From: Planctomycetota bacterium
GTDB lineage: Bacteria; Planctomycetota; Brocadiia; Brocadiales; Bathyanammoxibiaceae
Assembly (NCBI GenBank): GCA_023261505.1
Contig: JAHFOV010000003.1
Span: forward strand, 3,911 to 67,910
Length of the DNA stretch: 64,000 nt
Direction: 5' to 3'
The notes under the pieces are model-generated. The model had not been told where the DNA came from, ran no database searches, and saw nothing but the letters and a program-made list of their open reading frames with translations. Made by a program: the position numbers and the translations under genes. Shown here one piece after another: positions 8,970-25,629 of this stretch (within the stretch, counting starts at the first letter, position 1; the number at the start of each line of letters is the position of its first letter).

Positions 8970-9281
8970 CTTACCTACCTCACCACTGTACCATTTGCAA
9001 ATTTATTGAAAACATTCAATAAAACTAAGATACAATACAGGGCGAGAAAAATCGGAAAGAATTATAACGCACAATATGAAGCTGTCAAGGTCAAGGAGAG
9101 TTAATTTGTAGTATATATATGGGTCATGTTCTTACCCTTGTTTTTTATCCTAAAATTTAAGGAGATGCATTATGGGTTGGGGTGATACACTACTTATTTA
9201 TAAATCAAGCTCCTACTCAATAGGTTAATACTCTTGCAAGGAAAAGGCGTGGCCTCTATAATCAAAAAACCAGGAGGAAGA

Positions 9282-10664: not shown

Positions 10665-11041
10665 TGTACAGAACGCAGAGTGCTAACCTTGCTCTTACCG
10701 GTCTGGTGTTCTGCTGTGTGTCTAGACTCGGCAACCTTTTGTCTTTGTATCTTATCCTCTTTTGGGGGATGTTTTGCTAGCTCTTCCTCGTACTTCTTTA
10801 TGAGTTCTTCGTTATTATATCCAGGGCATAGCCCATGGCGCCACTTTTCTCTGGGATTGGAAAAGAATGCACATCGCTCTCCCAAGTTTAACTTACATCC
10901 ACTACATTTGCGAACAGGTTTTAGCCACTTTTCCATTGGTTCCTCTAAACAAAAAGTTCTAAATAATAACACCCCTACCTGTCCAATAAACAAAGGATAA
11001 CAGAAAAGAAGGATCTTGGCAAATCCTTTCTGGAATGACAC
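10661..11041 (-). CDS. Small Cys-rich hypothetical protein
   Basis: [44 protein letters not shown] followed by a Lys/Glu-rich tail. The internal ATG at 10936 is a plausible true start. The 3' end overlaps the thrC stop by 4 nt in convergent orientation. Confidence 0.4.
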
Positions 11042-11104
11042 AATTCTACCCTCTGGTTTAGAACCTTTATCTGGAAAAACCCAAGGTAGAATTCTTTCCG
11101 TCCC

Positions 11105-12160
11105 TTATTTCAGTTCTCTCCAAAGGGACTCTGGCATGTCGTAAGCAAGCTTCAATGACCCATCGGCACCGGCATAAACAGGCTCTTCTACCCTGGCAAC
11201 CTTGCCTCCCCCGTACTCCTGCAGGCCTTCTTCAACAACGCTATCGAGTCCCCTGATTTGACTCATACCCCCCGCCAGTATTACATTATTGAGAATGAGC
11301 TGTTGAAATTCGGGGTCATAAGTTGCAATGAGATTTCCAACCGCCTCAAGAATAGGAGGTACAATAGACTTGCAAGCTCGCCGACACTCCTCTGTAATGT
11401 CTAACGTCCTGGGTTTACCTCCTACGGGGACTCTTATTAATGTCCTATCAGTTGTATCTGTTACAAAACCATACTTTTCCTTTGCCTCCCTGACCATGTT
11501 GATAGTAAGCTGGGCTTCGGGATGGTTTTCCTTTATTAACTGTAAGAATAGCTCATCCACATAATCTCCTGCTGTAGTAAGGGTTATCTGGTCCCCTTCC
11601 TCCGGGAGGCTTCCATGCATACGGCACAGATCCACCGTTCCAGCACCAATGTCTATTATCAATGCATCCCCTAGCTTATCTAACCCATAGGCCACTGCAA
11701 AGGGTTCCGAGACTATCATCACAGAGTCTAGGGTCTCAGAAGCAGCTTCTATGAGAGACTGCTTATTGACCACGCTGGCCTGGGCTGGGGCACCAATGAC
11801 CCCATATACCTTCTGTCCCTCCCTAGCGTTAACTAATCCAACTACATGCTTCACCAGTTCCTTGGCAGCCGCTTTATAATTCTCAACCTCCTCCGGACCT
11901 GCCAGACTGGAATTGTCGGAATACTTAATAACTCCTTTTTCAAAGGGCCTTACCAGGTTCAACGCAAGACGTCGCTGCATGGCCTCGTTTCCGAAAACCA
12001 CTCTACTGCCCAGTAATTTCCTTGAAACCTCATCCTTGGGCCAACCCACTACACTTAATACCGTTTGTCGTAGACCGTTACTAGCCGTTATAGAGGTTTT
12101 GAAAGTCCCAAGGTCTATACCCAGAAATAATGCTTCACTATGCTCCCGTAACTCCGTCAT
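11105..12160 (-). CDS. MamK-like actin-family (ASKHA) filament protein
   Basis: LFLGIDLGT, VVGWPKDEV, VIGAPAQASVVNK, IVSEPFAVAYGLDKL, IIDIGAGTVDLCRMHGSLPEEGDQITLTTAGDYVDE, YDPEFQQLILNNVILAGGMSQIRGL and a C-terminal ..ESLWREL all track, block by block, my recollection of Magnetospirillum MamK. AGGAGGG lies 5 nt before ATG 12160, so the ORF-track ATG 12175 is likely too long. Confidence 0.8.
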   Translation of the reverse strand: MTELREHSEALFLGIDLGTFKTSITASNGLRQTVLSVVGWPKDEVSRKLLGSRVVFGNEAMQRRLALNLVRPFEKGVIKYSDNSSLAGPEEVENYKAAAKELVKHVVGLVNAREGQKVYGVIGAPAQASVVNKQSLIEAASETLDSVMIVSEPFAVAYGLDKLGDALIIDIGAGTVDLCRMHGSLPEEGDQITLTTAGDYVDELFLQLIKENHPEAQLTINMVREAKEKYGFVTDTTDRTLIRVPVGGKPRTLDITEECRRACKSIVPPILEAVGNLIATYDPEFQQLILNNVILAGGMSQIRGLDSVVEEGLQEYGGGKVARVEEPVYAGADGSLKLAYDMPESLWRELK

Positions 12161-12174
12161 ATTAACCCTCCTCA

Positions 12175-12846
12175 TTATTGACTACTGAGTTTTACGCTCC
12201 TGAGGTCCTCTGATTTATTCCCTCGCAGCTGAAGATTTTCCTTAATAATACCGTCAAAAAAGCCTCCTCTGTTTCCCGTCTGCCTTGTCTCCTTCTCCGC
12301 TTTATGCTTAACAACAGGAATGGCACTGTAAATGGAAGGCTGTAAACCTGCCTCTAGTCCTCTCAGAAGACTTTCTTCCAGGTTTCTGATAAATTCCATC
12401 GGGATATCCTTTGCCCCAAGGCTTTCTTTTGCCCGTTCTATGGCTTCACTTATCTTTTCCTTTAACTTTCCACCCCGATCCGCTTTCACCCCCATAGGCC
12501 TGGCATTTTCTGTCTTCTTTAAGACCTCCAGTTCCTTCCTCAATCTGGACACTTCAGCCTCCAGAGCTATGCGGGCCTCCTTTTCTTTATCCAATCTCAT
12601 TGCCACTAGTCCCTCTACGGTAAGGTTTATTAATTCTTCAAGACTCTTTTGACTTATTACTTTTAACTCTTTTATTCCTTGCTTTTTGAATTCCTTGAGG
12701 GTGACGCAGGATAACTTTTTCTGCTGGAGGGCCTCATAAATCCCTTTAGGGAACAGCCGTGCTACCCCCTCTGCTGATTGGGAGGAATTATCCTTCTCAA
12801 CTTCCATTATCTTGTCCTTCTTGTGGAGGGACTTTTTTGCTTTCAA
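12175..12846 (-). CDS. Coiled-coil protein translationally coupled to the MamK-like gene
   Basis: Its TAA overlaps the downstream ATG (TAATG). The central heptad-like segment is LDKEKEARIALEAEVSRLRKELEVLKK. The true start is probably ATG 12807 (MEVEKDN..), which has AAGGA 8 nt upstream. Confidence 0.6.
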   Translation of the reverse strand: MKAKKSLHKKDKIMEVEKDNSSQSAEGVARLFPKGIYEALQQKKLSCVTLKEFKKQGIKELKVISQKSLEELINLTVEGLVAMRLDKEKEARIALEAEVSRLRKELEVLKKTENARPMGVKADRGGKLKEKISEAIERAKESLGAKDIPMEFIRNLEESLLRGLEAGLQPSIYSAIPVVKHKAEKETRQTGNRGGFFDGIIKENLQLRGNKSEDLRSVKLSSQ

Positions 12847-13133: not shown

Positions 13134-14690
13134 ATGAAACCTACTTACCTCCCTGTTTATTCAGAATTTAAGGAGTTAGCTAAACAAGTCCTTGAGCGAA
13201 GCGAAGGAAAGGCCGGGTCGCTAGCACCGCAAGCAATAGTGCCTGTTTATCGCCAGCTAATGGCTGACACCCTTACTCCAGTCTCCGCCTTCCAAAAGAT
13301 AGTGGGGCCATCTCCAAAGGGTCTATCCGGGCACGCCTTTCTACTGGAGAGCGCAGCAGGAGGAGAAAAGATGGCTAAATCTTCATATTTAGGCGTTGGT
13401 CCTTTTATGGAGGTCTGGAGCAGTGGTAACCAAATGGAGATTCTAAATGGCCTTTCTAAAAAAATACTGAAGACTCAGGACCCTCTGGGCACCCTGGAAG
13501 GTTTGATAAGAAAGCATTCCCAGGCTACCCTTCCAGAATTGCGCCGCTCGGCAGTGGCAGTTGGATACATAAGTTACGATACTGTACGCTTCATTGAGAA
13601 ACTGCCCTACAAAGCTGTAGACGACCTTCGACTTCCAGACCTTCTTTTCATGTTTTTTGATTCCCTGGTCATCTTTGACCATCTAAATAAGACAGTGAAG
13701 GTCGTCTCCAATGCCCATCTGGAAGATGAGAAAGATCCCGCACCGGCTTACCGGGACGCCATCCAAAAGATTGACTCCCTTGTAGAAAAGCTCAGGACTC
13801 CCATCTTTACAATTAGTGATGATATTAATACTGACGGCGAGGTTACTTTACGCTTCTCTTCCAACTTCAAAAAAGAAGATTTTCTAAAGGCAGTTCAAAG
13901 ATGTAAGGAATACATTAAAGCAGGGGACGTTTTTCAGGTGGTTCTGTCACAGAGATTGGCTGTGAAGACGCAGGCCGATCCCTTCAACATATACCGAGCC
14001 TTAAGGGTGATAAACCCTTCTCCTTATATGTTCTATTTAGACATGGGTGAACTCAAGCTTATAGGTTCATCCCCTGAGGTAATGGTAAAGGTAGAAACGG
14101 GAAAAGTAACGGTCCGACCAATTGCAGGTACAAGAAAGCGTGGCTTCAATGAGGAAGAGGATGCAAGGCTCGAGAAAGAATTACTAGAAGACCCGAAGGA
14201 AAGGGCTGAACATATAATGTTAGTGGACTTAGGAAGGAACGATGTAGGAAGGGTGGCGGAGTACGGGAGCGTATCTTTAGAAGACAAGATGGTCATAGAG
14301 AAATACTCCCACGTCATGCATATCACTTCTTCCGTGACAGGCAAACTACGGCAGGATAAGAGTGCCTTTGATGCCCTGAAGGCCTGCTTACCAGCAGGCA
14401 CCTTATCAGGAGCACCAAAGGTAAGGGCCATGGAAATCATTGAAGAGCTGGAGCCTACCCGCCGAGGCCCTTATGGTGGTGCGGTGGGATACGTCGATTT
14501 CTCTGGAAATATGAACACATGCATAACCATTCGTACTATAACAATGAAAGGAGACACAGCCTACATTCAGGCAGGGGCTGGAATAGTAGCCGATTCTATA
14601 CCCGAGAGGGAGTACGAAGAAACCCTCAACAAGGCCAAAGGCCTCCTAAAGGCCATAGAAACGGCGGAGAGGATGGAAGCCGCCCAATAA
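13134..14690 (+). CDS. trpE: Anthranilate synthase component I (chorismate-utilising enzyme)
   Basis: 518 aa with the LLESA..GGE..SYLG N-terminal region, IAGTRKRG, AEHIMLVDLGRNDVGRV and GGAVGYVDFSGNMNTCITIRT motifs. No trpG follows. Confidence 0.85.
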   Translation: MKPTYLPVYSEFKELAKQVLERSEGKAGSLAPQAIVPVYRQLMADTLTPVSAFQKIVGPSPKGLSGHAFLLESAAGGEKMAKSSYLGVGPFMEVWSSGNQMEILNGLSKKILKTQDPLGTLEGLIRKHSQATLPELRRSAVAVGYISYDTVRFIEKLPYKAVDDLRLPDLLFMFFDSLVIFDHLNKTVKVVSNAHLEDEKDPAPAYRDAIQKIDSLVEKLRTPIFTISDDINTDGEVTLRFSSNFKKEDFLKAVQRCKEYIKAGDVFQVVLSQRLAVKTQADPFNIYRALRVINPSPYMFYLDMGELKLIGSSPEVMVKVETGKVTVRPIAGTRKRGFNEEEDARLEKELLEDPKERAEHIMLVDLGRNDVGRVAEYGSVSLEDKMVIEKYSHVMHITSSVTGKLRQDKSAFDALKACLPAGTLSGAPKVRAMEIIEELEPTRRGPYGGAVGYVDFSGNMNTCITIRTITMKGDTAYIQAGAGIVADSIPEREYEETLNKAKGLLKAIETAERMEAAQ

Positions 14691-14713
14691 TGCAAAATAA
14701 AAGGGTTTTAATT

Positions 14714-14742
14714 TTGACAGCTTTATTTCTTCATGCTAACAT
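14714..14742 (+). promoter_or_regulatory. Candidate promoter TTGACA-N17-TAACAT in front of the seven-gene operon
   Basis: TTGACA at 14714-14719 and TAACAT at 14737-14742. ATG 14751 lies 9 nt after the -10 box, which implies a near-leaderless first gene. Confidence 0.35.
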
Positions 14743-14750
14743 CGCCCACC

Positions 14751-15125
14751 ATGAGCTGGATACAACAAAGTCTTAAAAGGTTCAGAGAAGAAATGCGGCA
14801 AGCCTTTGCCATGGAAGGGAGGGAAGGTCTCACCGAGGAGGAGCGTGTCTTGCTAGAACGCATGGCTCAGGCCGTAGTCCGCCGTCGTATGGCCACCCCA
14901 GCTATACTGTTCCTGGAATCCCTAATGCCACTTAGTTATATTGGGAGCCAGGTCATGCACTTCCTCAGACCTTTCATGACCTTCCTCTTCTCACAGGAAG
15001 AATACGATAGACTGTCCCAGCTCCTTGAAAGACGTTCCACCATTGAGCACCTCATAGAGGCCATAAGGAGAGTTGAAGGCGGTAATCCGCCTCGGGCGGA
15101 GTGGCGAAAAAAAGATAATGGTTGA
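14751..15125 (+). CDS. Small hypothetical protein with a hydrophobic core segment (operon gene A)
   Basis: About 124 aa, with hydrophobic ATPAILFLESLMPLSYIGSQVMHFLRPFMTFLF flanked by charged helices. Its stop overlaps the next ATG (ATGGTTGA). Confidence 0.5.
   Translation: MSWIQQSLKRFREEMRQAFAMEGREGLTEEERVLLERMAQAVVRRRMATPAILFLESLMPLSYIGSQVMHFLRPFMTFLFSQEEYDRLSQLLERRSTIEHLIEAIRRVEGGNPPRAEWRKKDNG
15086..15100. repeat. 15-nt palindrome TCCGCCTCGGGCGGA (copy 2 of 4)
   Basis: Read directly from the sequence. It lies in the last codons of gene A, 18 nt before ATG 15118. Confidence 0.7.
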
Positions 15126-16908
15126 ACCCAAAGATCTTAAAGTAATCCTAGCTACCGACTGTGGTAGCACCACCACCAAAGCAATCCTTATAGAAAAAAA
15201 GGGGGAGGAATATAGGCAGACCTACCGTGGAGAGTCACCCACCACTGTGGAAGCCCCTTTTGAAGATGTCACTCGAGGGGCACTAAACGCCTTCGCAGAG
15301 TTGGAAGAGCTCTCTGGAAGGAAAATATTGGACGGAGAAAAGATTATAATGCCTGCCAGGGATAACGTGGGTGTGAACATCTATGTCTCTACTAGTAGCG
15401 CCGGTGGAGGGCTGCAGATGATGGTAGCCGGGGCAGTGAAGACTATGAGCGCCGAAAGTGCTCAAAGGGCCGCCCTGGGCGCCGGAGCTATTGTTACAGA
15501 TGTTATAGCCTCTAACGACAAAAGGCTCCCTCACGAGAGGATAGAGCTAATTCGGCAACACCGCCCTGACATGATACTCCTTTCGGGGGGGACGGACGGG
15601 GGTACTGTATCTCATGTTGTGGAACTGGCCGAACAAATCGCTGCCGCAAACCCTAAAGCTCGCCTTGGCACGACCTTCAAGCTACCTGTCCTTTATGCTG
15701 GAAATAAAGACGCAAGGGATATTATCAGTAAGGTGTTAGAAGAAAAAACCTACCTCCAGATAGCAGAAAACCTGCGCCCCACACTTGAGGCTGAAAACCT
15801 GATGCCAGCCCGACAAAAGATACAAGAACTCTTTTTGGAACATGTCATGGCCCATGCCCCTGGCTATAAGAAACTCATGACCTGGACCTCTACCCCAATA
15901 ATGCCCACTCCTGCGGCAGTAGGGGCAATCATAGAGAGCAAGGCAAAGAGAGACGGTATAAATATCGTGGGGGTGGATATCGGCGGCGCCACCACGGACG
16001 TATTCTCCGTCTTCGATGGCAACTTTACCAGAACGGTAAGTGCCAACCTGGGGCTTAGCTACAGCATCTCCAATGTCCTAGCCGAAGCAGGGGTGGAAAA
16101 CATACTCAGATGGATACCTTTTGATATGGATGAGGCAGACCTTCGCAATCGAGTAAAGAACAAGATGATACGACCAACTACAATACCTCAAACTCTGGAG
16201 GGGTTGCAGATGGAACAGGCCATTGCCAGGGAGGCCCTTCGTCTGGCTTTTGAACAACACAAGTCCTTGGCTGTAGGCCTGAAGGGTATCCAAAGGGTGA
16301 GGGACATCTCAGAGACCTTTAAAGAGGCAAAGGTGGAAACCCTGGTAGATATGCTGAAACTGGACCTCATCATTGGCAGCGGAGGGGTACTCTCTCATGC
16401 CCCCAGGCGCGCCCAGGCTGTGCTCATGCTTATAGATGCCTTCCTTCCAGAAGGCGTAACCCGGCTTGGAGTGGATAGCATCTTCATGATGCCTCACCTC
16501 GGAGTGCTATCATCCATACACCCAGAGGCTGCACAAGAAGTCTTTGAAAAAGATTGCCTCATTCCACTGGGAGCATGCCTGGCTGTCATCAACATAGGCA
16601 GGCTCGGTGAAAAATGCCTGGATATTAAAATACATTACCAAGACGGCAGAAAAATAGAGGAGAGCATCCCTTTTGGTGAATTGAAACTTTACCCCCTTGG
16701 TCCGAAGGAGGAAGCAGAGCTGGAGGCCCATCCCACCAGGCAATTTGACCTGGGTAAAGGCAAGGGCCATGCCCTAAAGACCAGGGTCCGTGGAGGCGTT
16801 GTTGGCCTTGTGGTAGACACTAGAGGAAGGCCCTTAAATATACCCAAAGACAAGGCCAAACGAATAGAACTCCTCAAGAGATGGGCTTCGGCCCTAGGGG
16901 CCTTTTGA
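15118..16908 (+). CDS. MutL/GlmL-family ASKHA ATPase (operon gene B)
   Basis: Two ASKHA phosphate-binding motifs, ILATDCGSTTTKAILI and VGVDIGGATTDVFSV, plus LLSGGTDGG. The protein resembles the glutamate-mutase accessory protein family. The start is taken at ATG 15118 (MVEPKDLKV..). Confidence 0.75.
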   Translation: MVEPKDLKVILATDCGSTTTKAILIEKKGEEYRQTYRGESPTTVEAPFEDVTRGALNAFAELEELSGRKILDGEKIIMPARDNVGVNIYVSTSSAGGGLQMMVAGAVKTMSAESAQRAALGAGAIVTDVIASNDKRLPHERIELIRQHRPDMILLSGGTDGGTVSHVVELAEQIAAANPKARLGTTFKLPVLYAGNKDARDIISKVLEEKTYLQIAENLRPTLEAENLMPARQKIQELFLEHVMAHAPGYKKLMTWTSTPIMPTPAAVGAIIESKAKRDGINIVGVDIGGATTDVFSVFDGNFTRTVSANLGLSYSISNVLAEAGVENILRWIPFDMDEADLRNRVKNKMIRPTTIPQTLEGLQMEQAIAREALRLAFEQHKSLAVGLKGIQRVRDISETFKEAKVETLVDMLKLDLIIGSGGVLSHAPRRAQAVLMLIDAFLPEGVTRLGVDSIFMMPHLGVLSSIHPEAAQEVFEKDCLIPLGACLAVINIGRLGEKCLDIKIHYQDGRKIEESIPFGELKLYPLGPKEEAELEAHPTRQFDLGKGKGHALKTRVRGGVVGLVVDTRGRPLNIPKDKAKRIELLKRWASALGAF

Positions 16909-16975
16909 ACTCTTAGGCCTTTAGAATTTATACTTTAATTCCTTTGAACTTTGAACCTTTAAACCCTTAAACTTT
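16909..16975. repeat. Degenerate 7-8-nt tandem array (CTTTGAA / CTTTAAA words)
   Basis: The sequence reads ..ggccttta gaattta tacttta attccttt gaacttt gaaccttt aaaccctt aaactttt and fills the whole B-C intergenic gap. Confidence 0.6.
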
Positions 16976-16981
16976 TTGTTT

Positions 16982-18103
16982 ATGGCCCACGCCTACACCC
17001 CAGGATTAAGAGTAGCCGAAAAGACAAAGATAAGGAAGGCCAGGGTGTTGCCCCTTCCCGGAGAGCTAGTAGTAAAAAAAGGGGACCGTGTAGAGGCGGA
17101 GGATGTCGTGGCCAGGACAGAACTCCCTGGGAAGGTCTTTTCCGTAAATGTGGCAGGACGACTGGGCATACCACCCGAGGAAGTGGTAAAATATATGATT
17201 AGAAAAGAGGGAGACCCTGTAGCAAAGGATGAAATCTTAGCCGAAAGTAAGTCCCTCCTTGCCTGGCTAAAGGCTACATGCACCTCCCCCATAAAAGGAA
17301 CAGTAGAGACCATATCAAATATAACAGGTCAGGTACTTTTAAGGGAACCACCTCAGCCCATAGAGGTCAGGGCCTATATTGGCGGGCGGGTGGTGGAGGT
17401 GATGGAAAAGGAGGGGGTTGTGGTGGAAACCACTGCCAGTTTTGTTCAAGGTATTTTCGGTGTAGGAGGGGAGGCGGTAGGTCTCCTGGAGATGGGTGTA
17501 AACTCCCCAGAGGAGGTGCTAGAACCTAAAGGGATAAGGCAAGAACATGAAGGAAAGATCCTTGTAGCTGGCTCATTGGTAACCTGGGAGGCTATGGATA
17601 AGGCTAGGAAGGCAGGGGTGAAAGGAATTGTCACGGGAGGGGTGTACGATGAGGATCTTAAAGCACTCCTGGGTTATGATCTGGGTGTGGCAATCACTGG
17701 TTCTGAGGAGATAGGGCTAACCCTGATAGTTACAGAAGGTTTCTCCAGGATTAATATGGCTAAAAAAACTTTCGAACTCCTCCAGTCAAAGCGTGGCATG
17801 AAGGCCTCCATAAATGGTGCCACTCAGATAAGGGCAGGTGTAGTACGCCCGGAGATAATTATCCCCCTTAATAAAGAGGCGACTGGAGAAGAAGAAACCC
17901 CTGCGGAAACGGGCATGACAATAGGAGATATGGTCAGGGTCATTAGAGAACCTCACTTTGGCAAAATAGGCAAGGTGAAGAGCCTCCCAGTAGAACTGCA
18001 AACGATTGAAACAGAGGCAAAGGTAAGGGTAGTGGAAATAGAACTGACCGAAGGCTCTACCATTTTAATTCCTAGAGCCAACGTGGAGGTGATTAAACTT
18101 TGA
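16982..18103 (+). CDS. Hybrid-barrel (lipoyl/EIIA-like) plus KOW-like protein (operon gene C)
   Basis: KKGDRVEAEDVVA and EGDPVAKDEILAE..TSPIKGTVETISNITGQVLL resemble barrel-sandwich hybrid motifs. The C-terminal IGDMVRVIREPHFGKIGKVKSL is KOW-like. No biotinyl AMKM motif is present. Confidence 0.6.
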   Translation: MAHAYTPGLRVAEKTKIRKARVLPLPGELVVKKGDRVEAEDVVARTELPGKVFSVNVAGRLGIPPEEVVKYMIRKEGDPVAKDEILAESKSLLAWLKATCTSPIKGTVETISNITGQVLLREPPQPIEVRAYIGGRVVEVMEKEGVVVETTASFVQGIFGVGGEAVGLLEMGVNSPEEVLEPKGIRQEHEGKILVAGSLVTWEAMDKARKAGVKGIVTGGVYDEDLKALLGYDLGVAITGSEEIGLTLIVTEGFSRINMAKKTFELLQSKRGMKASINGATQIRAGVVRPEIIIPLNKEATGEEETPAETGMTIGDMVRVIREPHFGKIGKVKSLPVELQTIETEAKVRVVEIELTEGSTILIPRANVEVIKL

Positions 18104-19377
18104 GACTTGGGGTGAGCCTAAACCCCAATCCGCCTCAGGCGGACAAGGGGGAAGCGAATCTATTGGGTAGACTTTTTTTGATAATTGTGTTAATGGGGAT
18201 TATTCAGCCTATAATTCCCCTTGGTGCCGCCGAACTGGTTCCTCCCGAAGGATTCAGGGCCTATGATACCCCATGGGATGGAGGGGAGTCAATTAGCCTA
18301 ACATGGCGTGTTTCTCCAAGCGAGTCCCCAGAGGTAAACTACATCATATACATAGCTAGCTCCCCCCAAGGGCCATGGATAGAGGCCATGAAGATAAGGT
18401 CAGATGCCTTTTACAAGACCGGTGCTCTTGAGCGGTTTGGTTTCCGCAAGAAGAGCAAGGACTTTCATGAACTACAGATAGACCCTAGACGCTATTTTGC
18501 TTCAGATAAAAACCGGCAGGCCATCTACTATTTTAAGCTAGCCACGGCCAGGGGGGAGGAGTTTGTACCAACAGAACAGGTGGTATCGGCCACGGCCAAG
18601 GGAAACTGGTTTAACATTTACAAGATAAACAACCTTATAATTATGATGGCCTTTTCAGGGGTGGTAATATTTTTCATAATCCATGCCAGGAGGAATCCCA
18701 ACCTCTTTTTACGGAAGATAAGCGGGCTGGATGCGGTAGACGAGGCCCTGGGCAGGGCCACAGAGATGGGTAGGCCAGTCCTCTTTGTTCATGGTCTAAC
18801 CAGCATGGGCAGCATATCCACTATGGCCGCCGTAAATATCCTGAGCCGTATAGCGCGCCGCATAGCTGAGTATGATGCTATATTAAAAGTAGTAAACAAT
18901 GACCCTATCGTCCTTTCAGTCAGCCAGGAGGTGGTCAAAGAGGCCTACCTTGAGGCTGGGCGCCCCGACGCTTATAACCCGGATTATGTGGTGATGGTTG
19001 CCTCGGAACAGTTCCCTTATGTGGCAGCGGTCAGTGGTATTATGACCAGAGAGCGGCCAGCGGCAAACTTCTTTATTGGCTATTTTTTTGCTGAGAGTCT
19101 TATCCTAGCAGAGACGGGTGCCGCCACAGGGGCCATTCAGATAGCCGGCACAGACGCTTATACCCAACTCCCTTTTTTTATAACTACCTGTGATTATACC
19201 CTTATGGGAGAAGAACTCTACGCCGCCAGCGCTTATCTGTCTAGAGAGCCTATGCTTTTAGGTACCCTCAGGGCACAGGACGTGGGCAAGGCCGCTATCA
19301 TAGTTATCCTCTTTTTTGGGACAATCCTTTCCAGCTTTGGTATACAGTTTGTCAGCCAGGTCTTTAGGGCATTTTAA
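18100..19377 (+). CDS. Membrane protein with signal peptide, FN3-like ectodomain and a large membrane-associated domain (operon gene D)
   Basis: The signal-like N-terminus is ..GRLFLIIVLMGIIQPIIPLGAA-ELV. The ectodomain contains ESISLTWRVSPSESPEVNYIIYIASS. There is a TM at LIIMMAFSGVVIFFII and a C-terminal TM. The start is ambiguous: either TTG 18100 (TTGA overlap with gene C) or TTG 18165. Confidence 0.6.
   Translation: MRLGVSLNPNPPQADKGEANLLGRLFLIIVLMGIIQPIIPLGAAELVPPEGFRAYDTPWDGGESISLTWRVSPSESPEVNYIIYIASSPQGPWIEAMKIRSDAFYKTGALERFGFRKKSKDFHELQIDPRRYFASDKNRQAIYYFKLATARGEEFVPTEQVVSATAKGNWFNIYKINNLIIMMAFSGVVIFFIIHARRNPNLFLRKISGLDAVDEALGRATEMGRPVLFVHGLTSMGSISTMAAVNILSRIARRIAEYDAILKVVNNDPIVLSVSQEVVKEAYLEAGRPDAYNPDYVVMVASEQFPYVAAVSGIMTRERPAANFFIGYFFAESLILAETGAATGAIQIAGTDAYTQLPFFITTCDYTLMGEELYAASAYLSREPMLLGTLRAQDVGKAAIIVILFFGTILSSFGIQFVSQVFRAF
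18129..18143. repeat. 15-nt palindrome TCCGCCTCAGGCGGA (copy 3 of 4)
   Basis: Read directly from the sequence. It lies between the gene C stop and the probable signal peptide of gene D. Confidence 0.7.
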
Positions 19378-19392
19378 CCCAGGAGGAACAAC

Positions 19393-20046
19393 TTGATCTT
19401 CTTGCGTCGAACTTTACCTTTAGCCATAGCATTTGTTATAGGAGTGCTTATGACCTTTCAATATTTTGTCCCACATCCCTACTCCAAGGCATTCCTGGAG
19501 CTAATGACCCGCTGGGATAGGATAATTGCAGGCTTTGCGGTGTTCATAGGGGTCTACAGCCTGTTCCACCTACACTGGACCCGCATCCGTAGAAAGGCGG
19601 CAGGATGGGGTTACAGTATCTTTGTCTTCCTGGGTGCATTTATTACCATTGCCTTTGGCCTTTATAATGGCGGGGAGGCCTTCTGGCACGATAAAAAAGA
19701 GGGCACCATGTTTGATTGGCTCTTCCTTTACATTCAGGTTCCGGCAGGGGCTACCATCTTTTCCATCCTTGCCTTCTTTATGGCCTCGGCAGCCTACCGA
19801 ACCTTCAGGGCCAGGACAGTAGAATCCACTGTACTGCTGCTAGCAGCTATAATTGTCATGCTGGGAAGGGTACCTGTTGGGGCCCTCATCTCTCAGTACA
19901 TCCCTTTAGCTGCAGACTGGATTATGGGGGTGCCAAATATGGCCGCCAAGCGGGGGATACTCCTGGGCGTTAGCCTCGGCGCCATTGCCACATCTATCAA
20001 GATTATCTTAGGTGTCGAAAGACAGTATCTGGGTGGAGGAGATTAA
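19393..20046 (+). CDS. Polytopic membrane protein, about 6 TM (operon gene E)
   Basis: AGGAGG lies 6 nt upstream of TTG 19393. I read six hydrophobic segments by eye. Confidence 0.65.
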   Translation: MIFLRRTLPLAIAFVIGVLMTFQYFVPHPYSKAFLELMTRWDRIIAGFAVFIGVYSLFHLHWTRIRRKAAGWGYSIFVFLGAFITIAFGLYNGGEAFWHDKKEGTMFDWLFLYIQVPAGATIFSILAFFMASAAYRTFRARTVESTVLLLAAIIVMLGRVPVGALISQYIPLAADWIMGVPNMAAKRGILLGVSLGAIATSIKIILGVERQYLGGGD

Positions 20047-20151
20047 AAATTAAAGTTCAAAGTTTAAGAGTTCAAGTGGTTAAGGGGTTAAAAGTTCAAG
20101 AGTTAAAATGTAGCCGCAGGCTTTAGCCTGCGTTCAAGGATCAAAAGTTAA
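20047..20151. repeat. Degenerate 8-nt tandem array (AGTTCAAG words) with an embedded 7-bp GC hairpin
   Basis: The sequence reads aaagttca aagtttaag agttcaag tggttaag gggttaaa agttcaag agttaaaa. The hairpin CGCAGGC-TTTA-GCCTGCG is at 20115-20132. The word set is the reverse complement of the 16909-16975 array. Confidence 0.6.
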
Positions 20152-20982
20152 ATGCAAAGGCTACTTAATATAGATAGGCGAATAATCTTTGCAGCAGTGG
20201 GCCTGGCGGTCATAGCATCACTTATTATTAAATTCAGTCTGCCTGTGCCCGCTAGTCCTCCCGTGCAAAGAATTTATGACAAGATAGAGTCCCTGCCCGT
20301 GGGGGCTCATCTGCTAATTTCTTTTGATTACGACCCTTCTAGCAAGGAAGAGCTTCAGCCCATGGCCCTTGCCTTACTTCACCACAGCTTTCGCAAGGGG
20401 TTAAAGGTTATTGGCATGACCCATAACCCAAGTGGGACAGGGCTTGCTGAACAGGCCATGAACTCTGTTGCCTCATTGTATCAGAAGAAATACAAGGAGG
20501 ATTACGTCTTCCTGGGCTACAAACCGGGAGGGGCCTCATTGATTATGAATATGGGAGAGGATATCCATACTGCCTTCTTAAAGGATTTTTACGGCAACGA
20601 TACTACTATGCTTCCAGCATTAGAAGGCGTTGAAAGCCTCAAAGATATAGACTACTTAATTGACCTAGCAGCTGGGGTTACGATAGAGACCTGGATTGCC
20701 TTCGGGAAGGAGAAATATCAGTTTGAAATGGGAGCCGGTTGCACGGCAGTTATTGGTCCAGATATGTATCCCTATCTAGATAGTCGCCAGATAAACGGCC
20801 TCATGGCAGGGTTGAAGGGGGCTGCAGAATACGAGACTCTGGCAGAATGTAAAGCACAGGCCTTTAAGGGTATGCTCCCCCAGAGTGTGACCCATTGCCT
20901 GGTAGTCCTCTTCGTCCTTTTTGGAAATGTAGTCTTCTTTATCAGCGGCGGCTTCAGATCCAAAAGGAGACAGAGTAGATGA
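20152..20982 (+). CDS. Bitopic protein: N-terminal TM, about 210-aa soluble domain, C-terminal TM (operon gene F)
   Basis: The TMs are IIFAAVGLAVIASLIIKF and CLVVLFVLFGNVVFFISGGF. The architecture parallels the C-terminal two thirds of gene D. Confidence 0.6.
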   Translation: MQRLLNIDRRIIFAAVGLAVIASLIIKFSLPVPASPPVQRIYDKIESLPVGAHLLISFDYDPSSKEELQPMALALLHHSFRKGLKVIGMTHNPSGTGLAEQAMNSVASLYQKKYKEDYVFLGYKPGGASLIMNMGEDIHTAFLKDFYGNDTTMLPALEGVESLKDIDYLIDLAAGVTIETWIAFGKEKYQFEMGAGCTAVIGPDMYPYLDSRQINGLMAGLKGAAEYETLAECKAQAFKGMLPQSVTHCLVVLFVLFGNVVFFISGGFRSKRRQSR

Positions 20983-21731
20983 TAAACATGAAAAATAAGA
21001 GCATTGACTTCTGGATCCTAACAGGTACCCTTAGCCTCTTCGCACTGGTAAACCTACTCTTTTTCCTCCTGGGAAGGTTGAGTTTTAGCTGGGAAGGCAT
21101 TGGTACAATGATCGCCGCTGGTCTCACCCTGGCAATATACAGCTTTCTTTATAAGGATAACCCCACCTTTAAGGTGGTAGAAAATCTATACGTTGGAGTG
21201 GCTCTGGGCTATACAGTTATAATCACCTGGTTTAATGCCCTGAAACCCGACCTATATGACCCACTCCTTGTCCCCCTTTTTACAGGGAAGCATGCGCAGT
21301 ACCTTCTTCTCGTGCCCATGTTTCTCGGCATATTCATGCTCCTCAGGTTCACAAGGAGGCTTGTCTGGTTGAGCCGCTTGACATTTGCCTTTGTGATAGG
21401 GTTGGGAGCCGGAGTAACCATCCCTAATTACATCCACACCTTTATCCTCAAACAGCTAGAACCTTCCATGCGGCCTGTGTTTTATGGAGGTGAGACGCTA
21501 CTGCCAAGTATCAACACCCTACTCATCCTCCTGGGGGTTATATCCGTCCTAATTTACTTTTTCTTCTCTGTGGAGCATAAGGGTCCTGTCGGCTGGCTAT
21601 CAAGGATAGGCATTTGGTTCCTGATGATCTCTTTTGGCGCATCCTTCGGCTACACAGTTATGGGCCGTATGTCTCTCCTTATAGGTAGGGTGATATTCTT
21701 GATGAGGGATTGGTTAGGAGTAATACAGTAG
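20979..21731 (+). CDS. Polytopic membrane protein, about 7-8 TM (operon gene G)
   Basis: An ATGA overlap with gene F indicates translational coupling. The protein is hydrophobic throughout. Confidence 0.65.
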   Translation: MINMKNKSIDFWILTGTLSLFALVNLLFFLLGRLSFSWEGIGTMIAAGLTLAIYSFLYKDNPTFKVVENLYVGVALGYTVIITWFNALKPDLYDPLLVPLFTGKHAQYLLLVPMFLGIFMLLRFTRRLVWLSRLTFAFVIGLGAGVTIPNYIHTFILKQLEPSMRPVFYGGETLLPSINTLLILLGVISVLIYFFFSVEHKGPVGWLSRIGIWFLMISFGASFGYTVMGRMSLLIGRVIFLMRDWLGVIQ

Positions 21732-21836: not shown

Positions 21837-21912
21837 TGGTAGCGGGGAGAGGATTCGAACCTCCGACCCGCGGCTTATGAGTCCGCTGCTCTGCCAACTG
21901 AGCTACCCCGCC
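21837..21912 (-). tRNA. tRNA with CAU anticodon (elongator Met, or Ile2 if lysidine-modified), CCA encoded
   Basis: The reverse complement folds as a cloverleaf: acceptor GGCGGGG/CCCCGCU (G1-U72), U8 A9, D arm GCUC-AGUUGGCA-GAGC, anticodon arm GCGGA-CUCAUAA-GCCGC, variable loop GGGUC, T arm GGAGG-UUCGAAU-CCUCU, then ACCA. It has no initiator features. Confidence 0.9.
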
Positions 21913-21914
21913 AC

Positions 21915-21935
21915 CGGTTAGGGGTTAGGGTTCAG
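21915..21935. repeat. TTAGGG-type heptamers (ggttagg ggttagg gttcagt)
   Basis: Read directly from the sequence. It abuts the 5' end of the tRNA gene. Confidence 0.55.
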
Positions 21936-22104
21936 TCAATTTTAGTAGGATTTGCGCCCTAAACCCAGATACTTTTAAAATATGAGATTACTTCGCTCGC
22001 ACGACGGTTCATGTTTTATGGTTATTGCGAAGGCGAAGCCTTGAAACAATTTTACTCCTTGTAACAAAGTTTAATACAACTTTTGAGAGTTTTCAAGGGG
22101 TAAA

Positions 22105-22167
22105 CTAGGGGTTAGGGAATAGGGTTTAGGGGCTAGGGATTAGGAATTAGCGAGTAGGCGGAGAGGA
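22105..22167. repeat. Nine-unit TTAGGG-type heptamer array
   Basis: ctagggg ttaggga atagggt ttagggg ctaggga ttaggaa ttagcga gtaggcg gagagga. It is inverted relative to the array at 22571-22598. Confidence 0.7.
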
Positions 22168-22177
22168 CAAGTTAGTC

Positions 22178-22492
22178 TTACGTTCTAAACTTAAGTTTGG
22201 ATAGCAAAGAATTTATCATTTTACTTAGTTCTTCTATTTCTTTCTGCAACGGAATGATTTTGCCTTGATGCGTAAATTTTAATTCAACAGCCAGCACTAA
22301 CAATGTCTCCATTTCAGCTAAAGAACCTAGGGCAACATACAAGAATTGCCTAAACTCTTTTGTGTACTTTCTTGTATGCCCTTCAGCAATATTTGAAGGT
22401 ACAGATATGGCAGCACGCCATAGCTGATTAGTTAAGCCATAAAGCTCGATTTTAGGAAAGATTTCTGAAATAATATATATTTGTTTTGCCAA
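22178..22492 (-). CDS. Four-helix-bundle protein (23S rRNA intervening-sequence protein family)
   Basis: YGLTNQLWRAAISVPSNIAEGHTRKYTKEFRQFLYVALGSLAEMETLL is the signature region of this family. Confidence 0.9.
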   Translation of the reverse strand: MAKQIYIISEIFPKIELYGLTNQLWRAAISVPSNIAEGHTRKYTKEFRQFLYVALGSLAEMETLLVLAVELKFTHQGKIIPLQKEIEELSKMINSLLSKLKFRT

Positions 22493-22570
22493 CCTTATAG
22501 ACCTTTTTCAAATATCAAGGTCTTTAAAGTTCTTTATTCTGTTTGCCATCTATAGATAATAGACGCTTCT

Positions 22571-22598
22571 TCTCTAGTCCCTAACCCCTAGCCCCTAA
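22571..22598. repeat. Inverted TTAGGG-type heptamers (tctctag tccctaa cccctag cccctaa)
   Basis: This is the reverse complement of the word set at 22105-22167. It overlaps the last 6 codons of purD (..RLGARG-stop). Confidence 0.65.
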
Positions 22599-23888
22599 TC
22601 TTGCGATGGCACGCCATCCTATGTCCTTTCGATAATAGGCACCGTCGAAGCTAATTTTTTCAGCCGCACTATAGGCCTTTTTCTGGGCCTCGGGCAAATC
22701 CTTACCTAGAGCGGTAACGCCCAAAATCCTTCCCCCTGTGGTAACAACCTTCTTCTGCCTTAGAGCAGTACCAGCGTGGAAGACCATCAGATCCTCAGCT
22801 CCAGATAAGGCCTCAAGCCCCTTTATCTCTTTTCCTTTTTCATAATTGCCTGGATAACCTGCGGAGGCTATGACTACACATAGGGCCGCCCTTGGATCCC
22901 ACCCATATTCCACCTTCTCCAGTCGTCCTTCTACAGTGGCAAGAAGGAGACTCAAGAAATCTCCCTGCAATCTCATTAGTAAGGGCTGCGTCTCAGGGTC
23001 TCCAAACCGCACGTTATACTCTAATACCCTTGGGCCAGCAGCGGTTAGCATCAAACCTACATAAAGCACCCCCTTAAAGGGTCTTCCCTCACGTTTCATG
23101 GCATGCACAGTGGGGACGAGAATCTCTTTCTCTACCTTGATCGAGAGTTCTTGAGTGAACTTGGGCACTGGTGTATAAGCTCCCATGCCTCCTGTGTTTG
23201 GCCCCTTATCTCCCTCATACAGCGCCTTATGGTCTTGGACCGGTTCCAGAGGTATAATACTTTTTCCATTAGTAAGGGCCATGATGGAGACCTCTTCCCC
23301 TTCCAGATACTCCTCAATTATTACCCTCTCTCCCGCTGGCCCAAAGACCTTTTCTCTCATAATTAAATCGACGGCCTTCAGGGCCTCTTCTGGACTCTTG
23401 CAGACAAAGGAACCCTTCCCCCCTGCCAACCCATCCACTTTTACCACCAAAGAGCCGTTAATACACTCTATATGCCTCTTGGCAGGTGTAATCTCGCTAA
23501 AGATGCGAAACTCGGCGCTGGGAATACCGTACTTCCTCATAAGGGTCTTGGAAAAGGCCTTACTCCCTTCCAGGAGAGCTGCTTTCTTCGTGGGGCCAAA
23601 GGCCCTTAATCCGTTAGCCTGGAAGCGGTCTACCAGTCCTGCTACCAAAGGTACCTCCGGGCCAACTACTGTAAAATCCACTTTCTCTTTAAGAGCGAAG
23701 TTACAAAGGGATCCTATATCATCTGAGGTAATGTCCACGCAGTCTGCCACAGATGCGATACCTGGGTTCCCAGGGGTACAGTAGAGCTTTTTAAGTCTGG
23801 GAGACTGGGCGATCTTCCACGCCAGACAATGTTCCCTCCCCCCGCTTCCAATCACTAACACTCTCAACGGCGATTCCTCCAGTTTCAA
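22581..23888 (-). CDS. purD: Phosphoribosylamine--glycine ligase
   Basis: RVLVIGSGGREHCLAWKIAQSP N-terminus, an ATP-grasp core and GPNTGGMGAY. Confidence 0.92.
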   Translation of the reverse strand: MKLEESPLRVLVIGSGGREHCLAWKIAQSPRLKKLYCTPGNPGIASVADCVDITSDDIGSLCNFALKEKVDFTVVGPEVPLVAGLVDRFQANGLRAFGPTKKAALLEGSKAFSKTLMRKYGIPSAEFRIFSEITPAKRHIECINGSLVVKVDGLAGGKGSFVCKSPEEALKAVDLIMREKVFGPAGERVIIEEYLEGEEVSIMALTNGKSIIPLEPVQDHKALYEGDKGPNTGGMGAYTPVPKFTQELSIKVEKEILVPTVHAMKREGRPFKGVLYVGLMLTAAGPRVLEYNVRFGDPETQPLLMRLQGDFLSLLLATVEGRLEKVEYGWDPRAALCVVIASAGYPGNYEKGKEIKGLEALSGAEDLMVFHAGTALRQKKVVTTGGRILGVTALGKDLPEAQKKAYSAAEKISFDGAYYRKDIGWRAIARLGARG

Positions 23889-23978
23889 TTTAACAAAACA
23901 ATTTTACTTACTACTGTAGAGAAGACAAAGGCTTTTTTAAAAACTGATTTGAAATTAGCTTCACTCTCATTTTTAGTC

Positions 23979-24008
23979 TTGGAAAAGAGGCTGAAAATGT
24001 GGTATAGT
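23979..24008 (+). promoter_or_regulatory. Candidate promoter TTGGAA-N18-TATAGT upstream of htrA
   Basis: TTGGAA at 23979-23984 and TATAGT at 24003-24008, preceded by TGG (extended -10-like). Confidence 0.3.
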
Positions 24009-24045
24009 AAAATGCGTTTTATTAAACCTAAAGGTTAGCAAAAAT

Positions 24046-25557
24046 ATGAAAAAATACACAGCATTGTTAACCATCGCCACTCTAATATTTTCGTGCCTTT
24101 TAGGATTAGTTCTATCCGCCGCAGATGGCCAGGCTAACTCAAGAGATAGCATTAAAAAGGAGCTAAAAGAGTTAGAGCAAAAGATAAAGCCTCTAGTTGA
24201 GACCTTTCATAAGGTATCGCAACTGGTGAGCCCCTCAGTAGTAAGCATAAGTACAAGAAGCAAGGGAGCAAAAGATGTTGAACACAGGGGACCAGGCTTT
24301 GAGCCTTTTGAACCTGAAGGAGGGGGTGATCCGCATCGTGGTTTTGATATTCCGCAATGGGGTCAGGGCTCCGGTGTGATTATAGATGAAAAGGGCCGTA
24401 TCCTTACAAACCTCCACGTAATAGAGGGTCATGAGGAGGGGACAATTCTTGTAACCACTGCTAATGGTAAGACTTATGAAGGCAAGGTGGTAGGGGTAGA
24501 CTCAAAGACTGACCTGGCTGTGCTAAAAGTAGATGGAAGCGGCCTTGAGCCTGCGGAGTTTGGTGACTCGGAACTAGTACAGGTGGGAGATTGGATAATA
24601 GCCATAGGAAGCCCTTTTGGTTACCAGCAAACTGTATCGGCTGGGATAGTAAGTGCTGTAGGCAGGCAAGGTGTTGTTCCTTTTCAGAAGCCCTTTGCAT
24701 ATGAGGATTTTATTCAGACAGATGCGGCAATCAACCCTGGTAATAGTGGTGGGCCACTGGTAAACCTCCGTGGAGAGGTGATAGGCATAAATACTGCCAT
24801 CGCCACCCGTACTGGCGGGTTCCAAGGAGTAGGTTTTGCCATATCCTCAAATATAGCAAAAGAGGTCAGCCGTAGCCTGATAGAGAAGGGAAGGGTGGTA
24901 AGGGGCTACTTGGGAGTGGGCATACTTGATATCGATGACGAATTGGCCAAGAGCCTGGGCTTCAAGAATGAAACGGAGATGCTTATAGAATACGGCCTTC
25001 CCTCTTGCCAAGGGGCCTTTGTTTCAGAGGTTTGGGATGATACACCAGCCTCTAAGGGCGGTATAAAACCTGGCGACGTCATTTTAGCAATAGGGGATAA
25101 AAAAATGACGGATCCCAGCTACCTGCAGAAATATATCAGCCACCTCAATGTGGAGAGCGTGGTAAATGTTTCTATCCTAAGGGACAAGGGCTTTCTAACC
25201 ATTCCAATAAAAATTGAGGAACAACCAGAAGACCTGGGAGATAGGAAATTTGTTTCGGTTGCCAGGAAAGGTGCTCCTGAGGAAGTTGGACTTGGCTTAA
25301 CCCTTCAAGAATTAACTGCTGAGGTTGCTCAATCCCTGGGATACCAGGGGGAAAAGGGCCTGGTAGTTACCGGTGTAGAAGTTGGAAGCCCTGCTGAAAA
25401 GGCAAATATGGGACCCGGCGACCTTATACTTCAATTAGGGCGGAAACCTGTTAAAACCCCCTCGGAATTTCGTCAAGCCTTAATTGAGGCACAAAAAGCA
25501 GGAGAGCCGATAGCCTTGCTACTGAAGAGCAGGGGTTTCATCACCATAAAACCATAG
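24046..25557 (+). CDS. htrA: Periplasmic HtrA/DegP/DegQ-family serine protease with two PDZ domains
   Basis: Signal peptide, catalytic His (TNLHVIEG), Asp (DLAVLKV) and Ser (GNSGGPLVN). There are two PDZ-like regions (..GYLGVGILDI.., ..LGLTLQELT..). Confidence 0.9.
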   Translation: MKKYTALLTIATLIFSCLLGLVLSAADGQANSRDSIKKELKELEQKIKPLVETFHKVSQLVSPSVVSISTRSKGAKDVEHRGPGFEPFEPEGGGDPHRGFDIPQWGQGSGVIIDEKGRILTNLHVIEGHEEGTILVTTANGKTYEGKVVGVDSKTDLAVLKVDGSGLEPAEFGDSELVQVGDWIIAIGSPFGYQQTVSAGIVSAVGRQGVVPFQKPFAYEDFIQTDAAINPGNSGGPLVNLRGEVIGINTAIATRTGGFQGVGFAISSNIAKEVSRSLIEKGRVVRGYLGVGILDIDDELAKSLGFKNETEMLIEYGLPSCQGAFVSEVWDDTPASKGGIKPGDVILAIGDKKMTDPSYLQKYISHLNVESVVNVSILRDKGFLTIPIKIEEQPEDLGDRKFVSVARKGAPEEVGLGLTLQELTAEVAQSLGYQGEKGLVVTGVEVGSPAEKANMGPGDLILQLGRKPVKTPSEFRQALIEAQKAGEPIALLLKSRGFITIKP

Positions 25558-25569
25558 GCCTAACAACAT

Positions 25570-25625
25570 ATTACAAATTACAGATTACACATTTGGAATT
25601 TACAATTTGAAATTTGTAATTTGGT
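25570..25625. repeat. Eight-unit heptamer array (ATTWSNN)
   Basis: attacaa attacag attacac atttgga atttaca atttgaa atttgta atttggt. It lies between the convergent htrA and topA stops. Confidence 0.75.
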
Positions 25626-25629
25626 GTCT

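Follow-up and report, generated by a model that had tools for sequence, protein, structure and literature searches.

A cluster of seven genes, named A to G here, probably encodes an undescribed ATP-driven machine of the cell envelope. The cluster lies on the forward strand of a 64,000-nucleotide stretch (the window) of a Planctomycetota genome of the Bathyanammoxibiaceae (contig JAHFOV010000003.1, positions 3,911 to 67,910, assembly GCA_023261505.1). An undescribed machine is proposed because the set is kept in hundreds of species of more than 12 phyla and matches no characterised system. The function and physical assembly of the system we infer, as we do the ATP-driven membrane machine that the preliminary description of this stretch had already read into it.

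Conservation of the cluster and its two modules

Relatives of D were found in at least 590 species genomes by a pattern scan that took one genome per species, and its family, DUF6754, comprises 2246 clusters at 50% identity. The best 80 loci among the D relatives were surveyed by searching six-frame open reading frames (ORFs) with A–G and with hidden Markov models (HMMs) of the families. These loci carry at least 13 phylum-level names. The groups represented are Brocadiaceae, Scalindua, Anammoxibacter, Phycisphaerae, Planctomycetaceae, Latescibacterota, Gemmatimonadota, Methylomirabilis, Nitrospirota, Sumerlaeota/BRC1, Elusimicrobiota, WOR-3, Stahlbacteria, Edwardsbacteria, Zixibacteria, Poribacteria and CSSED10-310. 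D was present in all 80 loci, E in 76, F in 73, G in 70, C in 55, B in 53 and A in 51, on one strand and in the order seen in the window. The full set of seven was recovered with the family HMMs in 43 of the 80, most of the others being cut by contig ends. In one locus (L078) the seven genes are all present but reordered as A-B-C-E-F-G-D. Median identities to the window proteins are 65% for B, 53% for C, 52% for E, 48% for G, 45% for both D and F, and 37% for A. Co-inheritance of A–G is strong. The preliminary description had left it to be seen whether the genes are co-conserved outside the source genome; they occur together across at least 13 phylum-level groups.

The cluster divides into an invariant membrane core, D-E-F-G, and a second module, A-B-C, which usually stands with the core in one operon; the two can also be kept unlinked. 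The core occurs without A-B-C in 11 loci that have at least 4.7 kb of upstream sequence, where unrelated genes adjoin it. In Brocadia, A-B-C and D-E-F-G form separate operons, as seen in loci from GCA_013112835.1 and GCA_000949635.1; the placement of both sets on one replicon rests only on the same 4,034,580-bp contig being listed for the D and C proteins. Gene A is found together with B-C in Brocadia, and in two other loci (L055 and L057) it stands directly before D, B-C not being there. B-C is thus the soluble module, and A goes with either module.

The seven genes and their junctions

All coordinates are given in the numbering of the whole window, and the ORFs were read on the + strand. Gene A (14733–15125, 130 aa) begins after a 42-nt gap that follows trpE (13134–14690), its 5′ neighbour. 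It is followed by B (15118–16908, 596 aa counted from ATG), C (16976–18103, 375 aa), D (18100–19377, 425 aa), E (19393–20046, 217 aa), F (20152–20982, 276 aa) and G (20979–21731, 250 aa). A tRNA-Met (CAT) gene on the − strand (21837–21912) marks the 3′ boundary of the operon. Each of the seven has homologues in other phyla with E-values from 1e-20 to 1e-290 and in the same gene order; judged by these homologies, A–G are real genes, far beyond chance.

The public gene call on the identical contig, made independently, recovered all of A–G, with different starts for C, D and E only. The conserved N-terminus of C, MAHAYTPGL, begins at ATG 16982, the probable start. For D, TTG 18100 has GGAGG 9 nt upstream and is probably the start, in preference to GTG 18112 of the public call. 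For E, TTG 19393 has AGGAGG 6 nt upstream, and the public call begins at ATG 19450 (198 aa). The first 19 residues of the longer form of E are conserved across phyla, with P9 invariant. The form of 217 aa is preferred because of this conserved N-terminus and the better ribosome-binding site, and TTG 19393 is the more likely start.

The preliminary description had reported seven genes of one strand with overlapping junctions, and these were read directly. The A/B junction is ATGGTTGA at 15118–15125, the C/D junction is TTGA at 18100–18103, valid only if D starts at TTG 18100, and the F/G junction is ATGA at 20979–20982 with AAGGAG 9 nt upstream. The stop of A and the start of B share 4 or 8 nt in 27 of 44 loci, as ATGA in 17 and in the 8-nt form of the window in 10. 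The operon had been described as beginning at 14714; this position is out of frame with A and is instead the first base of a promoter-like site.

Gene B encodes an ATPase of the MutL/GlmL family

A match to PF13941 or TIGR01319 had been expected for B, and the first of these was found. The Pfam MutL profile (PF13941) matches B at 2e-126 and 422.9 bits, against a gathering threshold of 27, over positions 1–450 of its 450, whereas TIGR01319 (GlmL family) matches below its cut-off (163.4 against 204.05 bits). The best NCBIfam matches are GlmL and the ornithine-aminomutase Or-4 protein, and they also fall below cut-off: B reaches 236.6 of the 475 bits for the GlmL equivalog NF040745 and 207.9 of the 600 for the GlmL-related Or-4 (NF040744). 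Residues ~481–596 lie outside the PF13941 model and form an extra conserved C-terminal domain of ~115 aa that carries a conserved GG..G...D.RGRP. Two smaller matches were also seen: the phosphate-2 region matches Hydantoinase_A with 24.5 bits (cut-off 22.9), and residues 133–182 have a weak B12-binding-like match. A PDB sequence search with B gave no relative, and there was no Pfam match to the polymer families MreB, FtsA, PilM and ParM.

The two actin/Hsp70-type phosphate motifs noted earlier are present and invariant across phyla. In an alignment of 19 B sequences from more than six phylum-level groups, phosphate-1 (ATDCGSTTTKA, with Asp14), phosphate-2 (VDIGGATTD) and the adenosine motif GSGGVLSH (GSGG..H.PRR) do not vary, and B has the DxGxT, DxGG.T.D and GxGG motifs of the ASKHA superfamily. 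Identity across phyla in this alignment is 62–72%, a level that we take to be about that of the core ATPases DnaK, ClpX and the F1 beta subunit, and presumably above that of MreB. On its sequence, B is a MutL/GlmL-family ASKHA ATPase, yet by score, neighbours and architecture it is not GlmL itself.

The membrane proteins D, E, F and G

D belongs to DUF6754 (PF20539), which matches residues 167–422 at 2e-118 and 394.5 bits against a gathering threshold of 27. Its AlphaFold2 (AF2) model, with a predicted local distance difference test (pLDDT) score of 87.5, consists of an N-terminal helix, an FN3-like sandwich and a six-stranded Rossmann-like domain, with one transmembrane (TM) helix between these two domains and another at the end. 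In residues, a signal or anchor helix is followed by the FN3-like domain at ~53–165, TM 176–194, the Rossmann-like domain at ~210–381 and TM 392–410. Foldseek matched the FN3 part to neogenin/DCC and gave generic matches only for the Rossmann-like part. Model and matches agree with the earlier account of D as a signal-peptide/FN3-like/TM/large-domain protein. Hydropathy and charge bias, taken with the AF2 model, predict a periplasmic FN3 domain and a cytoplasmic Rossmann-like domain. The invariant residues of D include R219, E222, G232, E332, E338, Q347, D365, E371 and E372, and the invariant acidic and polar ones are at the C-terminal ends of beta1, beta4, beta5 and beta6. In the model, these strand ends would be the usual ligand or partner site of a Rossmann-like fold. 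Long N-terminal extensions of some D homologues held no informative Pfam domains.

E and G are polytopic, as had been described, with ~6 and ~7 TM helices. E has a conserved Arg-rich loop, FSILAFF.ASAAYRAFRART, and G has conserved YKDNP, FFFS.EHKG and FGASFGYTVMAR motifs. F is bitopic, with TM 14–32, a ~207-aa domain, TM 250–268 and a basic cytoplasmic tail; its domain is predicted, from hydropathy and charge bias, to be periplasmic. None of E, F and G matched Pfam, NCBIfam or PADLOC. Among cross-phylum members searched against Pfam, the 31 of E gave nothing consistent, and the 30 of F and 29 of G gave nothing. For none of D, E, F and G did profile searches of PDB sequences return a relative. 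The idea that E or G is an ABC permease was rejected: BPD_transp-type Pfam matches were absent, and no EAA-like loop was seen in the consensus by eye.

The preliminary description had given F a layout similar to that of D and had proposed a check for paralogy. The TM-domain-TM arrangement of F is indeed like that of the C-terminal half of D, but the domain is predicted on the opposite side of the membrane, periplasmic in F and cytoplasmic in D. All-against-all comparison of the seven families with hhalign gave no paralogy. The full-length probability for D against F was 0.4%, and the domains alone reached a marginal E-value of 0.036 and a probability of 1.4% over 136 collinear columns. A further possibility is that the two domains are very distant paralogues of inverted topology that would form a pseudo-symmetric core.

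The proteins A and C

A has no strong TM helix by hydropathy, in line with its earlier description as a small amphipathic protein. It carries a conserved HAFA motif, a hydrophobic to amphipathic PA..FLES..PLNFLGSQ..F..PF segment and a C-terminal LERR helix, and it has no match in Pfam, NCBIfam or PADLOC.

C has no clear membrane helices. Its AF2 model, built on an alignment of Brocadiales only (pLDDT 77), begins with sandwich-barrel-hybrid repeats, continues with a small alpha/beta domain and ends in a KOW/SH3-like barrel. Foldseek matched the model to domain II and KOW of Thermotoga maritima NusG (2xhc; E-value 3.7e-5, TM-score 0.17–0.18), and further to RNA polymerase sandwich-barrel hybrid motif repeats (RNAP Si3), the SPT5 KOW, PA domains and SH3/Tudor barrels. 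The Pfam matches of C, to RnfC_N, KOW and biotin-lipoyl, are all sub-threshold. Together, these matches and the fold likeness fit the hybrid-barrel protein with a KOW-like tail that had been proposed. Searches of PDB sequences and Pfam gave no family match for C, and a profile search with the cross-phylum alignment again returned Brocadiales and Scalindua only. Two loops, LLGYDLGVAITG and GATQIRAGV.RPE, are invariant and have low confidence in the model, which is typical of segments at an interface. The invariant loops of C span residues 228–246 and 278–297.

Three more specific identities of C were tried and rejected. As a lipoyl or biotinyl carrier, C scores 14.7 bits with Biotin_lipoyl against a cut-off of 22.1, and the candidate K92 is R or Q in homologues. 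As a subunit of RnfC/NqrA type, it scores 18.1 bits with RnfC_N against 25.6, NqrA and RnfC are missing from the top 50 Foldseek matches, and E and G have no Rnf-Nqr Pfam match either. As a NusG/Spt5 factor, it reaches 16.3 bits with KOW against 22.3 and has no NGN match, so the likeness is one of fold only. No confident profile or fold match from Pfam, NCBIfam, PADLOC, PDB or Foldseek places C–G in a characterised complex, the outcome on which the preliminary description had staked its proposal of an undescribed system.

Proposed mechanism

A conserved two-module ATP-driven machine of the cell envelope is the reading that we tentatively prefer, at a little short of an even chance. The only relatives of its clade that have been characterised, GlmL/MutL and at a greater distance DdrA and EutA, spend ATP on prising a partner protein open. 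Within the MutL/GlmL family itself, every characterised member is an ATP-dependent chaperone whose task is to reactivate a partner enzyme (PMC4682846). B belongs to this clade. Because these relatives act by ATP on a partner protein, B is proposed to hydrolyse ATP and to serve as a conformational switch on the cytoplasmic domain of D. C would couple B to the acidic crevice of this domain through its invariant Arg-rich loops, which are unstructured when C is modelled alone. A would tether B-C to the D-E-F-G membrane complex, a role proposed because A is translationally coupled to B and is found beside either module. ATP-driven changes in D would then be relayed by the D-E-F-G bundle to the FN3 and F domains in the periplasm, and these would move or reshape a substrate of the envelope or the periplasm. 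A more far-reaching form of this proposal, that A–G constitute a new class of primary-active membrane machine with a GlmL-clade ASKHA motor, which is not ABC, P-type, rotary or AAA+, and four membrane-protein families without described relatives, is possible but doubtful.

Several points weigh against an ATP-driven membrane machine. We know of no member of the MutL/GlmL clade that drives a membrane process. A-B-C does not adjoin D-E-F-G in loci of WOR-3, Stahlbacteria, Edwardsbacteria, Poribacteria and others, and no ATPase may be needed for the core to function. Fold matches to the Rossmann-like domain of D are generic only, so that this domain could equally well be an enzyme. Charged residues conserved within the membrane are lacking in E and G, as is any transporter-family signature.

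Neighbouring genes

No extra gene is universally linked to the cluster in the 80 loci. The only recurrent neighbours of a characterised kind are genes of Opp/Dpp-type ABC importers, which are interleaved with the cluster or abut it in 17 loci of four phyla, from Latescibacterota, Gemmatimonadota, Sumerlaeota and Anammoxibacter. For instance, L013 and L019 have the order A-B-[SBP-DppB-DppC]-C-D-E-F-G-[OppD-OppF], SBP being the substrate-binding protein, and L023 has A..G-SBP-OppD-OppF. They are a weak hint of peptides, or of envelope material that contains peptides, as the substrate. In another locus, L084, SNF and amino-acid permease genes flank D-E-F-G.

The loci with Opp/Dpp genes include L005–L009, L011–L013, L015, L018, L019, L022, L023 and L025. 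Their sets are often incomplete, with two ATPases after G and no permease genes near, or a family-5 binding protein alone before A. Latescibacterota loci also carry, after G, a ~1050-aa CarboxypepD_reg/TonB-receptor-like outer-membrane protein.

A small gene, Z, is directly upstream of A in 20 of the 80 loci, in Latescibacterota, Gemmatimonadota, Sumerlaeota and Phycisphaerae (L005, for example at 4786–5265, L006, L008–L016, L018, L019, L022, L023, L025, L026, L057, L060 and L072). Its product of ~130–150 aa has two TM helices and a PH-like C-terminal part and no Pfam match; an HMM of Z found nothing in the window.

Glycan-related genes were also seen. A PMT_2-type GT-C glycosyltransferase gene lies between C and D in two Elusimicrobia loci (L044 6237–9829 and L065 2027–4309), and a B12-binding radical SAM gene precedes it in L044. 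In L079 (Poribacteria) a PMT_2 gene is near D, while Wzm/Wzt genes follow C in Brocadia and a Wzi gene follows G in WOR-3. A link to envelope glycans was set aside as a weak lead: the association is sporadic, with GT-C genes in three loci only.

Alternative explanations

The main rival is a transport-plus-metabolism operon without a motor. D-E-F-G would then be a secondary or binding-domain-assisted transporter, or a receptor, for a peptide- or amino-acid-derived compound, and A-B-C a cytoplasmic ATP-dependent enzyme or chaperone that acts on this compound, with B behaving like its hydantoinase/oxoprolinase-clan relatives and not as a membrane-docked motor. The Hydantoinase_A match over the phosphate-2 region of B suggests as much, as do the separability of the two modules, the Opp/Dpp genes at 17 loci and the SNF and amino-acid permease genes at L084; the characterised GlmL relatives, moreover, act in amino-acid catabolism (PMC4682846). 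However, neither Pfam nor NCBIfam detects a hydantoinase B, oxoprolinase or mutase catalytic partner among A–G, and D, E, F and G show no transporter-family match with ~30 members of each family. The 65% identity of B and the obligatory co-retention of four membrane proteins would be unusual for a peripheral catabolic pathway, and the system is found in autotrophs (Nitrospira, anammox bacteria and NC10). We regard this explanation as unlikely. A highly improbable one is that B is a genuine GlmL-type reactivating chaperone and that C–G constitute or assist a cobalamin or radical enzyme of the membrane that has gone unrecognised. It would account for the PF13941 match, for GlmL and Or-4 as the best NCBIfam matches, for the weak B12-binding-like match at residues 133–182 of B and for the B12-binding radical SAM gene between C and D in two Elusimicrobia loci. 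Against this, B lies below all three GlmL cut-offs, and the radical SAM insertion is limited to one lineage. The absence of a B12-dependent mutase nearby, remarked on from the start, was confirmed by Pfam scans and a motif search. C–G and 20 neighbouring ORFs (160–12846 and 22178–31870) have no mutase, B12-binding or radical SAM match, ~31.9–64 kb lying outside the scan, and no window ORF of at least 100 aa contains the DxHxxG...SxL...GG motif. A search for cobalamin riboswitches in the window and in eight loci found none.

Less probable still is a membrane-anchored cytoskeleton or scaffold, in which B would polymerise and be positioned by A and C on a D–G anchor. B has the ASKHA fold and is presumably more conserved than MreB, and actin-fold proteins mounted on bitopic membrane proteins have precedents in PilM-PilN-PilO and FtsA. 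Nevertheless, B has no polymer-family Pfam match, and the MutL, EutA and DdrA branches are listed among the non-polymerising members of the actin superfamily (PMC5597319). Alternatively, A-B-C and D-E-F-G could be two unrelated units that are adjacent by chance, which is the least probable of all. Such a view draws on the 11 loci with ample flank where D-E-F-G stands alone beside unrelated housekeeping genes, and on the unlinked modules of Brocadia. It is opposed by the 43 of 80 loci in which both units are adjacent on one strand, which span Planctomycetota, Nitrospirota, Latescibacterota, Gemmatimonadota, NC10, Elusimicrobiota and Sumerlaeota. L078 is permuted yet complete, A occurs beside either unit, and in L013 and L019 the remainder stays together with foreign Opp genes between B and C.

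Comparison with known systems

The nearest relatives of B are GlmL/MutL, the reactivating accessory protein of coenzyme-B12-dependent glutamate mutase (methylaspartate mutase), and the Or-4 protein of D-ornithine aminomutase clusters. B shares with them the full-length PF13941 match, the ASKHA fold and the nucleotide-binding motifs, and likely also an ATP-driven conformational action on a partner, the role described for MutL (PMC4682846). Unlike them, B scores about half of the equivalog cut-offs, has the extra conserved C-terminal domain of ~115 aa and is far more conserved across phyla. It never adjoins glmS/glmE or any mutase, no mutase being a conserved neighbour in the 80 loci, and travels instead with C and four membrane proteins. 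In the diol dehydratase reactivase DdrAB and the ethanolamine ammonia-lyase reactivase EutA, ATP/ADP switching opens the partner and frees a bound ligand. As non-polymerising actin-fold ATPases (PMC5597319), they are proposed as a mechanistic template for the action of B on D. They differ from B in that no sequence match links them to it in the PDB, and in that they are soluble, serve B12 enzymes in microcompartment pathways and have no membrane partners.

Other systems resemble A–G in architecture or in the way energy would be passed on. In the inner-membrane platforms of type IV pili (PilM-PilN-PilO) and of type II secretion (GspL-GspM), a cytoplasmic actin-fold protein is mounted on bitopic proteins with periplasmic alpha/beta domains, an arrangement analogous to B with D and F. 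However, A–G have no PilM, PilN, PilO or GspL Pfam match, and secretin, pilin and hexameric ATPase genes are not nearby. The energy of those systems is not known to come from PilM or GspL, whereas B is the only ATPase of A–G. Type VII ABC systems (MacB, LolCDE and FtsEX) transmit the effect of cytoplasmic ATP hydrolysis through TM helices to periplasmic domains, which work on a substrate in the envelope, and have no transmembrane channel. Such mechanotransmission serves as a working analogy, of function only, since A–G have no ABC ATPase, FtsX or MacB_PCD and the fold of their ATPase is ASKHA; the ABC genes at some loci are the separate Opp/Dpp genes. The clearest precedent for an ASKHA ATPase that powers translocation through a membrane-tethered adaptor is given by mtHsp70-Tim44-Tim23 and BiP-Sec63-Sec61. 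These motors are eukaryotic and work on the trans side, and B has neither the Hsp70 substrate-binding domain nor a J-domain partner in the operon. By analogy, and not by homology, A–G may function as would a reactivase chaperone grafted onto a mechanotransmission complex.

An anti-phage defence system was also considered and rejected, with no PADLOC match for any of the seven proteins and a core-genome context. A search of 7.7 million PMC papers and bioRxiv found no paper naming DUF6754, PF20539 or PF13941. As far as our tools tell, A–G are undescribed as a system.

Promoter-like site, spacers and flanking genes

The best sigma-70-like match of the region (14714–14742, + strand) lies in the gap after trpE. 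It consists of TTGACA, a 17-nt spacer and a TG-extended TAACAT, and agrees with the consensus at 10 of 12 positions, as a consensus match only. The transcript start predicted from it, at ~14749, would leave the first ATG of A (14733) outside the mRNA. The second in-frame ATG is at 14751, and homologues of A begin near there. A may thus be 124 aa long and be translated from a leaderless mRNA.

The E-F spacer (20047–20151, + strand, 105 nt) holds AGTTCAAR three times, at 20054, 20069 and 20093, and a GC-rich hairpin, CGCAGGC-TTTA-GCCTGCG, at 20115–20132. The reverse complement of AGTTCAAR occurs twice in the B-C spacer (16909–16981; motif region 16904–16950). The window as a whole has 14 occurrences of the motif where 6.0 would be expected, and these two spacers account for 5 of them. 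The repeats could allow the spacers to pair with each other or to bind a common regulator. An Rfam scan gave no riboswitch or other Rfam element associated with the cluster.

The genes that flank A–G are housekeeping genes (tig, clpP, purC, nth, trpE, purD, htrA, topA and hom), which places the cluster in the chromosomal core and in no island. The nearest relatives of D and C are all from Brocadiales, which makes the source an uncultured planctomycete of the anammox order. The G+C content of the part of the window that includes most of the operon (14001–20000) is ~49.5%, against ~45–46% in the flanks; given the core-genome context and the high conservation, coding constraint is a more likely cause than recent transfer.

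Two further features of the flanks were recorded. Between the operon and purD (21837–22492, − strand), the tRNA-Met (CAT) gene is accompanied by a gene for a 104-aa '23S rRNA intervening sequence' four-helix-bundle protein. At 11105–12846 (− strand), a divergent actin-like ATPase of 356 aa matches Pfam MreB_Mbl at 2e-21, with weaker Actin and Salactin matches. Before it on the same strand, and overlapping it by 1 nt, lies a gene for a 223-aa coiled-coil protein that has no Pfam match. The pair looks like a two-gene unit of filament plus adaptor, and it is not kept beside A–G in other phyla.

Implications

B is conserved at what we take to be the level of the core ATPases, yet neither B nor its six partners nor what they do together has been studied. 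Four families that Pfam lacks (A, E, F and G) can be defined from the present alignments. If the proposed mechanism is right, bacterial cell biology would gain a fifth kind of ATP-powered membrane machine, and the GlmL clade a function outside B12 enzymology. The carriers of A–G include organisms that run key steps of the nitrogen cycle (Nitrospira, among the main nitrite oxidisers, the anammox bacteria and Methylomirabilis/NC10) and many uncultured phyla. The system may therefore represent a widespread function of the cell envelope that is invisible from the model proteobacteria and firmicutes.

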